Below are positions 1 to 1,950 of a stretch of 1,950 bases of DNA, piece by piece. A program made the position numbers. The stretch is from Escherichia coli (lineage in GTDB: Bacteria; Pseudomonadota; Gammaproteobacteria; Enterobacterales; Enterobacteriaceae). The stretch lies in NCBI RefSeq assembly GCF_003334385.1, contig NZ_QOWN01000106.1; one strand, written 5' to 3'. Numbering within the stretch: position 1 is the first letter of the stretch; each line of letters begins with the position of its first letter.

Positions 1-1950
1 GCTGCCGCGAAAGCAGGAATACTGCCGGAGGGTTTTTTCTGGACGGATGCGGAGAATAACGACGTCCCGATGACGGCTGGGGAGCTGATGGCACTCAGTG
101 AGGCGGCGGAGAAGGCGATGTTCACCAAAGGGATGGAAATTCATGTCAGACAGCGCACGATGAAAAAAGAGATTGAAGCGCTGGGTGATGCGGAAGCTAT
201 ACTGGCGTATAAGGTCGGCATGGCTGACAGGTGAAAAAAAGAGGGGCGCTCCAGCCCCTTGCTACAAAGCTATGGCTAAATAAAGAATACTCAGGTCGAG
301 GAAATGATCTGGCAATGATAATTAAAGGAGATGCAACGGCCTCCTTCACCCCTGTCAAAGATAAAAAACTGGGGAGTGCGTGCTCCCCGAGAGCATGATA
401 CTTGTGGTTGATAGTTATTTTTATCCGGCGACAAAGATATTGAGATGAGGTCGCGGATGCAATACAGAATTTTCGTATTGCATGGTAACTGCTGATTCCT
501 GAAACTGAAAGTCGTCATGAAACTGTAAGCGAAAAAACGGGGAGACGGCACGCTCCCCAAGGTCATACATGAGATAGTGGTGTTTTTATAGTCGAAAGAA
601 TAATTGCATAAAAAGAGTGTAAATTAAACATTCAGGGGATACAGAATTTTCGTAGGCTGAGGGATTGCTGAAAATAATTTAGTGCGTCCTTCAATGGTCA
701 TTCAATGGTCATCAGATTGTGCTGATGTAAACAGTTAAGCACAATTTGATTATTTGACTTTCTTCTTTTTGTGACTAACTTCACAATTAAAGATGTAACC
801 GTATACAAATTGTTGATGAATAAAGAGACAGCATAAGTGGCAGGCCAGTCGTAATGCGGATATCCCTTCGCGAACGTGATATCACCGACGTTATAGTAAG
901 GAAATTCCGAAAAACTTCATATTAAAATTCGGAATTTCTTCAGGAGTAAGCTCATGAGAGCGGCGAGACATCAGATTTTCTTTATATATCCGATGTTGAA
1001 CTGTTTTATTTGTATACAGATAATTTTATAGGGTATACCACATGAGCAAGAAATTTACAAAGACTATTCTTTCATCTGCTGTTGCCGGTCTGTTGTTGGT
1101 GAGTGGTGGGGTTGTTGCGGCAAATCCTAAGGACGTAAATATTGGGGGCGAGTACATCGTAAAATTTTACAATGATGGGGAAGGTGCCGAGATAGTAAAA
1201 GCAAAAGGAAAAAAAGAGGTTTTATTAGGTGCTATTAATACAACAACAGGAAGCATCATGACCTTTAATGAAAAGGAGGCTGCTAAAAGTAAAACGCAGG
1301 ATGATTTTAATTCTATTGTGTATCCTGTCTACTTACCTGAGTTAAAGCTGGAAAATATAAAATCCCTAAATGTCGATGATATAAAGAAAATACAAGAAAT
1401 AAAAAAGAATGTGTCTGAGGTTGTTACATCTGCCAACTCAGCTGAGTATTTATCTGCTATAAGAAGTGGCGGTAATACTGAGGCTTACTTAGCAATTAAC
1501 AAAACATCTCCAGCTTTATCAAAAGAGTACTCTCGCATTTCTGGGAATATCGAACAGCTGAATAAAGACACCACTTTTGCAATTGACGCTGACGGCAACA
1601 TTACTCTGGATGAGACAGTCGGTACAGGTGAGCGCTATGGTGTGAAGGATGTTGTGGCTGATCTTGTTGCTGACACGACTGTGTATGCCGAAGAAGATGG
1701 TTCACTGACGATGGATAACAGTGCTCCAGCAAGAAAGCGTGTTAATGAAGCACTGGTTGACCTGGACAAATCTGTTCGTGAGCGTACCACTGTTGGTGTG
1801 AGTTCTGACGGCACCCTGACCCGTGCAGAAGGTGCAAAGAACACCATTTCTGTTAACGATGGTCTGGTGGCCCTGTCTGGTCGTACTGACCGTATTGATG
1901 CAGCAGTTGGTGCCATTGATGGCCGTGTCACCCGTAACACGCAATCCATT

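Follow-up and report, generated by a model that had tools for sequence, protein, structure and literature searches.

Eib proteins bind immunoglobulin Fc and drive the chain-like adherence of LEE-negative Escherichia coli that produce Shiga toxin (STEC). The described systems closest to their genes include phage morons, as exemplified by lambda bor and lom (the concept of Hendrix and Juhala), and the H-NS-silenced adhesin and autotransporter genes, such as those for UpaG/EhaG in E. coli and yadA in Yersinia. H-NS usually occupies AT-rich acquired DNA in E. coli, and low expression at 23°C with expression at 37°C is a common signature of the genes under its control. A host system of similar make-up is bgl, which is repressed by H-NS and activated jointly by CRP and BglJ-RcsB (PMC3950696). 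Eib loci themselves have been described in the P-EibA, P-EibC, P-EibD and P-EibE prophages of ECOR-9 (AF151091, AF151674-6; Sandt and Hill 2000), in which an orf-191-like gene, a gap, eib, orf-156 and orf-60 follow one another. Here we analyse the 807-bp non-coding gap (positions 235-1041) between a tail-gene stop and the eib ATG in a 1,950-nucleotide stretch of E. coli DNA (NCBI RefSeq assembly GCF_003334385.1, contig NZ_QOWN01000106.1), the whole of which is referred to as the window. We propose, with a probability of about 0.5 for the explanation as a whole, that the gap acts as a non-coding control region for an eib moron (i.e. an accessory gene amid prophage tail genes), and that it consists of two parts: a distal spacer with leftward terminators, and a proximal half with CRP- and RcsB-type sites and a promoter of its own, probably overlaid by a layer of H-NS.

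The eib locus resembles the bor and lom morons in that an accessory gene for a surface protein, of deviant composition and expressed in the lysogen, lies amid conserved late genes and is followed by a hairpin. In the present case eib lies between a tail-fibre-assembly gene and further tail genes, within a trough of GC content; for a promoter of its own there are candidates only, and the stem_loop annotated downstream of eibA in AF151091 lies beyond the window. Unlike a minimal moron promoter, the non-coding region upstream of eib is far longer (358-807 bp), and unlike bor and lom it has terminators facing away from the gene and several conserved sites of host-regulator type. With bgl and leuO of E. 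coli K-12 it shares AT-rich DNA that extends from upstream into the gene, a putative CRP site, and a predicted weak promoter preceded by RcsB-type boxes. It differs from them in that the putative CRP site is not beside the core promoter but about 125 bp upstream of the first RcsB-type box, and in that the eib arrangement is known from sequence. The known eib activators, IbrA and IbrB, are to our knowledge not partners of RcsB. Like UpaG/EhaG and yadA, eib encodes a trimeric autotransporter, lies on acquired DNA that is AT-rich and is expressed in a temperature-dependent manner; unlike them, its region is without a curved-DNA signature.

The window follows the gene order of the ECOR-9 prophages, and the stem_loop annotated in P-EibA is the same inverted repeat as that of the window. 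It differs from P-EibA by one additional unit of some 115 bp and in having an 11-mer twice instead of once, whereas the EibC, EibD and EibE gaps are of a shorter type (358-363 bp) that shares only short conserved blocks with it. GenBank has carried the locus with its 'stem-loop' since 2000, control regions of morons on AT-rich DNA are well known as a kind of element, an AT-rich region upstream of an acquired gene is ordinary, and the idea of H-NS binding to it is generic. What is new is the map of a leftward terminator array, a variable duplication, a predicted CRP core, putative RcsB-type boxes and an invariant 10-mer.

Our comparison drew on 28 distinct regions upstream of eib, taken from the genomes of E. 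coli, from phages in GenBank and from IMG/VR; they fall into six upstream types with gaps of 358-807 bp: T1 (the window and EibA), T2 (JNEC-KY202 and phage GER2), T3, T4 (EibC, EibD and EibE), T5 and T6. Between types these regions are mostly barely alignable, and what is kept are short blocks at fixed distances from the ATG, corresponding to approximately 710-1041 in the window.

Among these blocks is an exact consensus CRP core, TGTGA-N6-TCACA (TGTGACTAACTTCACA), at 770-785, centred 263.5 bp before the ATG; 0.10 cores with at most one mismatch are expected in the whole window. A core with at most one mismatch is found at -255 to -276 in five of the six types, with 0.013-0.033 expected per region, and those of the other types read TGTGATGGTTATCACA, TGTGGTGCTTATCACA, TGTGATGTTGCTCAGA, TGTAATTTTGTTCACA and TGTGACGCATATCAAA. 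The half-sites are kept across types, and the N6 spacers are all different.

Downstream of the CRP core lie boxes of RcsB type. The RcsB box has been given as TN(G/A)GAN4TC(T/C)NA, with a lower-affinity form TN(G/A)GAN4(A/C)CTNA (PMC7913699), and the RcsAB consensus as TaAGaatatTCctA (PMC3950696). Box 1 of the window (TAAGGAAATTCCGA, 897-910) is, in its minus-strand reading TCGGAATTTCCTTA, an exact match to the lower-affinity form, and box 2' (TCGGAATTTCTTCA, 929-942), with one mismatch, is nearly the reverse complement of box 1. Box 1 is present at -131 to -148 in all six types, being exact in types T3-T6, exact in the low-affinity form in the window, and within one mismatch in type T2. A second position, box 2, holds exact low-affinity RcsB boxes at -87 to -94 in types T3-T6; its homologous position in the window (941-954, CAGGAGTAAGCTCA) is degenerate. 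The block TCAGATTTTCTTTA at 971-984 is invariant in nine sequences and constitutes a one-mismatch RcsB-type box in types T1, T2 and T3. Taken across the types, RcsB matches with at most one mismatch cluster at -136/-148 (6/6 types), -92/-106 (5/6) and -63/-74 (3/6), and exact sites number two to three per region in types T3-T6 versus 0.05-0.11 expected (P<=0.002). The positions specified by the RcsB consensus are kept across types and the free positions (2, 13 and the spacer) vary.

Two further observations concern the CRP position. In type T6 (L184, IMG/VR 2778261009_000008), an exact RcsB-type box (TGAGATTTTTCTCA) stands in place of the CRP core, 262 bp upstream of the ATG, which may represent a swap of regulator sites at one position. 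In type T2 (L010 and L162) there is a second CRP-like core (AGTGATGCCTGTCACA, one mismatch) 365 bp before the ATG and 90 bp upstream of the conserved core.

The remaining conserved elements are less readily assigned. The 10-mer TTTGTATACA at 1009-1018 is invariant in six of the six upstream types, 23-32 bp before the ATG, beside the ribosome-binding site and with diverging flanks; compared by eye, it matches no known E. coli regulator site. In types T2, T3 and T5 it extends to a 12-bp palindrome, TTTGTATACAAA. The 12-mer GATATCACCGAC at 878-889 is kept between types T1 and T2 and marks the start of the cross-type proximal block. Further upstream, the inverted repeat ATCAGATTGTGCT-N14-AGCACAATTTGAT (711-750; repeat I6) gives a plus-strand fold with z=-3.9, and an RcsB-type box with one mismatch (712-725) makes up its left arm. 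Interpretations of the conserved blocks as LexA, FNR, IHF, TyrR, NanR, MlrA or sigma-54 sites were dropped by eye due to wrong spacing or poor matches, and a scan of viral contigs with ATCAGATTTTCTTTA yielded mostly chance matches.

Promoter candidates are found on the plus strand at two places. A promoter scan identified the sigma-70-like TTGAAC-17-GATAAT at 996-1024 (9/12 matches), the -35 element of which is not conserved in other types. The second candidate is a -10-like hexamer, TATAGT, at 892-897, which abuts box 1; type T5 has the same TATAGT, also at -150 and with an upstream TG, and types T2, T3, T4 and T6 have -10-like hexamers nearby, at -148 to -160. It has been reported that eibG and two related adhesins are expressed, and that eibG complements, from a plasmid with only 168 bp of eibG upstream DNA (bioRxiv 10.64898/2025.12.25.695649). 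The boxes lie inside this 168-bp stretch and the CRP site lies outside it, and read-through from the vector is possible.

The distal half of the gap (235 to approximately 708), at about 45% GC versus about 35% in the proximal half, is of a different character and occurs only in T1-type (EibA-type) upstream regions. Scanning for terminators yielded five candidate sites, each of them on the minus strand and inside 235-560, versus 1.4 +/- 1.3 in shuffled sequences; two of the five are overlapping variants at terminator T3. Terminator T1 (235-259) comprises a hairpin at 242-259 and a U7 tail (235-241 on the plus strand) directly after the tail-gene stop, and its GGGGC/GCCCC stem is kept in KY176 with a different loop. 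It is followed by a leftward hairpin with a weak T tail at 323-348, which in KY176 and L147 has a perfect 8-bp stem (AAGGAGGC/GCCTCCTT) and again a different loop, by terminator T2 (hairpin 371-388, tail 363-370), and by terminator T3 (hairpin 538-559, tail 532-537), the hairpin of which is degenerate in 2012EL-2448 and 2018-166. None of these hairpins has a U tail on the plus strand, and rightward phage late transcription is therefore expected to pass. Leftward terminators of unrelated sequence stand at the junction of tail gene and eib region in upstream types T1, T2 (where the terminator is bidirectional), T4 and T5, a recurrence in four types which we take to reflect a recurrent need to stop leftward transcription before the tail genes.

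From the observed anatomy, conservation and motif matches we infer every protein-DNA interaction of the proposed mechanism, as well as the position of its transcription start and the role of its terminators. The distal terminators would stop leftward transcription leaving the eib control region before it enters the tail-fibre genes in antisense, and would let rightward phage late transcription through. In the lysogen, eib would be transcribed from its own weak promoter, activated by cyclic AMP (cAMP)-CRP together with an RcsB-type regulator (NarL/FixJ family), and H-NS would probably coat the AT-rich DNA of approximately 560-1600 at low temperature. In this it would resemble bgl and leuO, at which CRP and BglJ-RcsB overcome H-NS.

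Published expression data can be read alongside this mechanism. Eib of several types reaches its highest levels in static LB, from late exponential phase on, and M9 containing 1% glucose or a yeast-extract medium containing 2% glucose gives far less of it, a pattern that the authors read as nutrient limitation (PMC5450701); low Eib in glucose media would also be predicted by catabolite repression. EibG is near the detection limit at 23°C, on at 37°C, and raised by static or microaerobic growth (PMC4352079). The temperature effect fits silencing of the H-NS type, and static or surface growth is a plausible input to the Rcs system. The colanic-acid gene wcaK is a classical member of the Rcs regulon. 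In STEC adhering to epithelial cells, ibrB and wcaK are up-regulated together (PMC7649339). This gives a weak hint that the conditions which activate Eib also activate Rcs. The sequence-only reading of the window had stated that prophage Eib-type genes are reported to need separately encoded activators. This is correct, since IbrAB was described in this role by Sandt, Hopper and Hill in 2002 (cited in PMC6024878 and PMC7649339); according to PMC7649339, the same work found that Eib expression is enhanced by ibrB. The literature searched contains no link between Eib and CRP, RcsB or H-NS, and neither an eib promoter nor a site for a direct regulator is described in it.

The conserved CRP-type and RcsB-type sites offer concrete targets for mutation and could explain the effects of glucose, static growth and temperature on Eib; if they act, they would show how a phage-borne gene plugs into host regulation. 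A bolder and more tentative form of the proposal, which we consider doubtful in its full extent, is that eib of all upstream types is wired into two signalling systems of the host, the Rcs phosphorelay that senses envelope and surface and cAMP-CRP, through conserved operators, and that the EibA type in addition fires short leftward non-coding RNAs that end at the three terminators. If true, the Rcs and CRP wiring would explain Eib induction by static, glucose-free growth at 37°C.

Several points weigh against the two-part control region. The six upstream types are homologous, so that their agreement does not amount to six independent observations. The window's own type is weaker than others in its RcsB matches, with one exact (low-affinity) site versus 0.17 expected (P=0.16) and the rest at one mismatch, and type T2 has no exact RcsB box. 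Read-out by RcsB is loose, such that AT-rich pseudo-palindromes match easily (PMC7913699), and the real ligand could be another NarL-family or phage regulator. With respect to CRP, the types have no -10/-35 pair whose distance from the site is consistently that of class I or class II, and a transcription start placed by -10/-35 elements at canonical CRP distances was rejected as inconsistent among them; moreover, 168 bp of upstream DNA is enough for eibG to be expressed from a plasmid, and this stretch does not reach the CRP site. In the distal half, the junction of type T3 has a rightward terminator and that of type T6 has none, the only leftward promoter candidate (777->749) overlaps the CRP site, and given that some strains have a degenerate terminator T3 and that an entire unit can be dispensed with, part of this half may be functionless.

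The alternative that survives best is that the whole region is generic AT-rich, intrinsically curved xenogeneic DNA, the main function of which would be to nucleate H-NS filaments that silence eib, with IbrAB or another dedicated counter-silencer relieving them. We regard this as less probable than the two-part control region. It has in its favour the deepest GC trough of the 20-kb prophage context, in which GC content falls to 35-40% over about 1.3 kb of a prophage of about 52% GC, as well as thermoregulated expression, dependence on IbrAB and the known targeting of AT-rich acquired DNA by H-NS. Base composition, however, is uneven. The sequence-only reading had described some 800 bp of AT-rich DNA preceding an AT-rich 5' coding region and had taken the intergenic region to be a likely target of silencing. 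The gap as a whole has 39.3% GC, which breaks down into 45.4% at 235-560 and 35.1% at 561-1041, and the description thus holds for the latter segment but not for the former, which makes up the first 40% of the gap. The AT-rich start of the gene was borne out, with 37.6% GC at 1042-1600 versus 50.9% at 1601-1950, so that the AT-rich island spans approximately 560-1600, half upstream of eib and half within it. In AT content, 561-1600 (35-38% GC) is as expected of an H-NS target and 235-560 is not.

The curved-DNA-like A and T tracts of the same reading did not withstand comparison with dinucleotide shuffles. The gap holds 15 tracts of at least four bases versus 12.7 +/- 2.4 in the shuffles, and 8 of at least five bases versus 4.1 +/- 1.8 (P=0.03); in no part of the 10-11 bp range does the AA/TT periodicity of the gap exceed that of the shuffles, and the runs of six or more A at 235, 363 and 532 are the U-tails of the three minus-strand terminator hairpins. 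Phased-tract curvature of the kind expected of an H-NS target is accordingly not found. The high-affinity nucleation motif of H-NS is TCGATAAATT; a scan of 235-1600 with it gave no site with at most one mismatch, and its sole two-mismatch match, at 1157, lies inside the gene. Conservation between types, furthermore, is concentrated in short blocks that look like sites of specific regulators and is not spread as AT-richness. Silencing of approximately 560-1600 by H-NS is a plausible and reasonable generic expectation from composition, but because the conserved elements resemble specific regulator sites (CRP and RcsB type), generic silencing is at best one layer, and H-NS occupancy could take that place within the two-part control region. 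A single GATC in the gap, at 306, was found in a scan for Dam sites, which makes phase variation of the pap or agn43 kind unlikely.

The distal half contains a diverged tandem duplication on the minus strand. Unit A (363-531) includes terminator T2, unit B (532-708) includes terminator T3, and their global alignment scores z=9 against shuffles. They have in common the exact 16-mer ATACAGAATTTTCGTA (462-477 and 639-654; repeat family D2, 100% identity, spacing 177), which is the sole perfectly conserved stretch between them, and a similar terminator-proximal end of about 65 nt. A third copy, 'unit 0', was sought in the segment 235-362 and rejected (z about 0-1). In P-EibA, KY176 and 2013C-3033 about 115 bp (roughly 457-571), or about one unit, is missing, and a profile of the unit (nhmmer) found copies only in T1-type (EibA-type) eib upstream regions among 188 loci (1.5 Mb).

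One explanation of these units is that they encode one to three leftward small RNAs (sRNAs) of about 60-200 nt and of Hfq type, with the 16-mer as a common upstream regulatory site. We consider this unlikely. Three strong minus-strand terminators with U6-U7 tails, the shared 16-mer and similar 3' ends, a minus-strand fold of 361-480 with z=-2.9, and a minus-strand TTGCAT-17-TATCTT read by eye in unit A would all suit such genes; the hand-read element, however, is not conserved between units A and B, the promoter scan found no minus-strand promoter within either unit, and no Rfam family matches anywhere in the window at E<=1. In addition, some strains have a degenerate terminator in unit B, a deletion has removed one unit from P-EibA and others, and the units are found only in T1-type eib loci.

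An explanation of similarly low probability is that the distal half is neutral recombination debris from the junction between the end of the phage late operon and a convergent leftward operon. It would account for the type-specific and variable length of the gaps (358-807 bp across types), for the dispensability of one unit and the decay of the terminator T3 hairpin in some strains, and for the fact that in the other types some 100 bp suffice to separate the CRP site from the stop of the tail gene. It does not sit well with a leftward terminator that recurs, in unrelated sequence, beside the tail-gene stop in four types, nor with terminator T1 and the 323-348 hairpin, which keep their stems while their loops change.

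The 16-mer and its neighbourhood show a few features of their own. In unit A, ATACAGAATTTTCGTA is flanked by an 8-bp inverted repeat, TGCAATAC...GTATTGCA. A wider similarity of units A and B to the proximal promoter region was not significant (P=0.2-0.3), so that the loose likeness of the 16-mer to the block at 971-984 is not supported; its loose likeness to 1013-1026 is not significant either. Next to unit B, the 11-mer TTCAATGGTCA stands twice in tandem at 690-711 (alignment A1, columns 493-503). It is present in two copies in the window, 2012EL-2448 and 2013C-3033 and in one copy in P-EibA, PhiR5_2, 2018-166, KY176 and UPEC-245U, and this copy-number polymorphism sits about 60 bp upstream of the CRP core.

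A last alternative concerns the 'stem_loop' of AF151091 (3777-3814), the sole feature annotated in the P-EibA gap, which maps to the window's box 1 (897-910, left arm) and box 2' (929-942, right arm); the annotation arises because these boxes form its two arms. That the inverted repeat 899-940 is instead an RNA hairpin in a long 5' leader starting near the CRP site or at TATAGT (892-897), acting as a stability element or thermosensor, is quite improbable: its 13-bp stem folds well as a single sequence (z=-3.4), some inverted repeat with differences on both arms stands at the same place in every type, and Eib expression is temperature-dependent, but RNAalifold finds no common hairpin in this segment across eight sequences, which favours paired protein sites, the arms are RcsB-type pseudo-palindromes with half-sites complementary by construction, the hairpin lies about 100 nt from the ribosome-binding site and would not sequester it, and the 168-bp eibG construct is expressed, although it is silent on the start position.

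With the two-part control region as the favoured reading, the genes and annotations around it can be summarised as follows. The window begins with the 3' end of a tail-fibre-assembly-like gene (1-234, plus strand; DUF4376, ORF-191 of the P-Eib prophages), of which it holds the last 77 codons with the stop at 232-234; the assignment is based on matches to PHROG tail fibre families (E=5e-37), and homologous RefSeq loci and orf-191A of AF151091 agree. It ends within the 5' part of eib (1042-1950, plus strand), an Eib-family trimeric autotransporter gene of which the first 303 codons from the ATG at 1042 are included (phrog_9547, E=7e-106; RefSeq name 'YadA C-terminal domain-containing protein'). 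In complete genomes this gene pair lies inside a prophage late region, with tail-fibre genes on one side and further tail genes on the other, on the same strand. That eib is horizontally acquired, as had been supposed, is upheld by its place among prophage tail genes and by an upstream module common to P-EibA of ECOR-9. BLAST against 5,426 E. coli genomes found the gap at 99% identity in about 18 of them and its sequence nowhere outside eib loci; relative to the eibA gap of P-EibA, that of the window is 93.7% identical over the 86% that aligns.

The non-coding nature of the gap, also part of the initial description, was confirmed. In none of the loci retrieved does RefSeq annotate a coding sequence that separates the DUF4376 gene from the YadA-C-terminal gene, the five longest open reading frames (ORFs) of the gap match no PHROG family, and several of its short ORFs cross terminator hairpins. 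The record of phage PhiR5_2 (PV340546) lists two minus-strand 'hypothetical proteins' of 49 amino acids in the gap (3187-3336 and 3390-3539); the first (421-570 of the window) crosses the terminator hairpin 538-559, has no match among the PHROG families and was probably called as a gene in error. A minus-strand ORF of 49 amino acids with a good Shine-Dalgarno sequence upstream of eibD was rejected as well, since it crosses a terminator and runs antisense into orf-191.

Further observations concern the gene itself and the rest of the prophage. The eib coding sequence is mosaic, in that identity between genomes stays above 94% as far as 1109, 1362 or 1618 and is lost thereafter, and its signal-peptide start and C-terminal anchor are conserved across types, a pattern suggesting that passenger segments recombine in a modular way behind a common control region. 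GC content dips in a second place in the same prophage (L001, 15000-16500), though less deeply (to about 40-42%), at and just before a gene for an Ail/Lom-family outer-membrane protein, which is followed by a Hok/Gef toxin gene, and both constitute further moron-like cargo downstream of eib.

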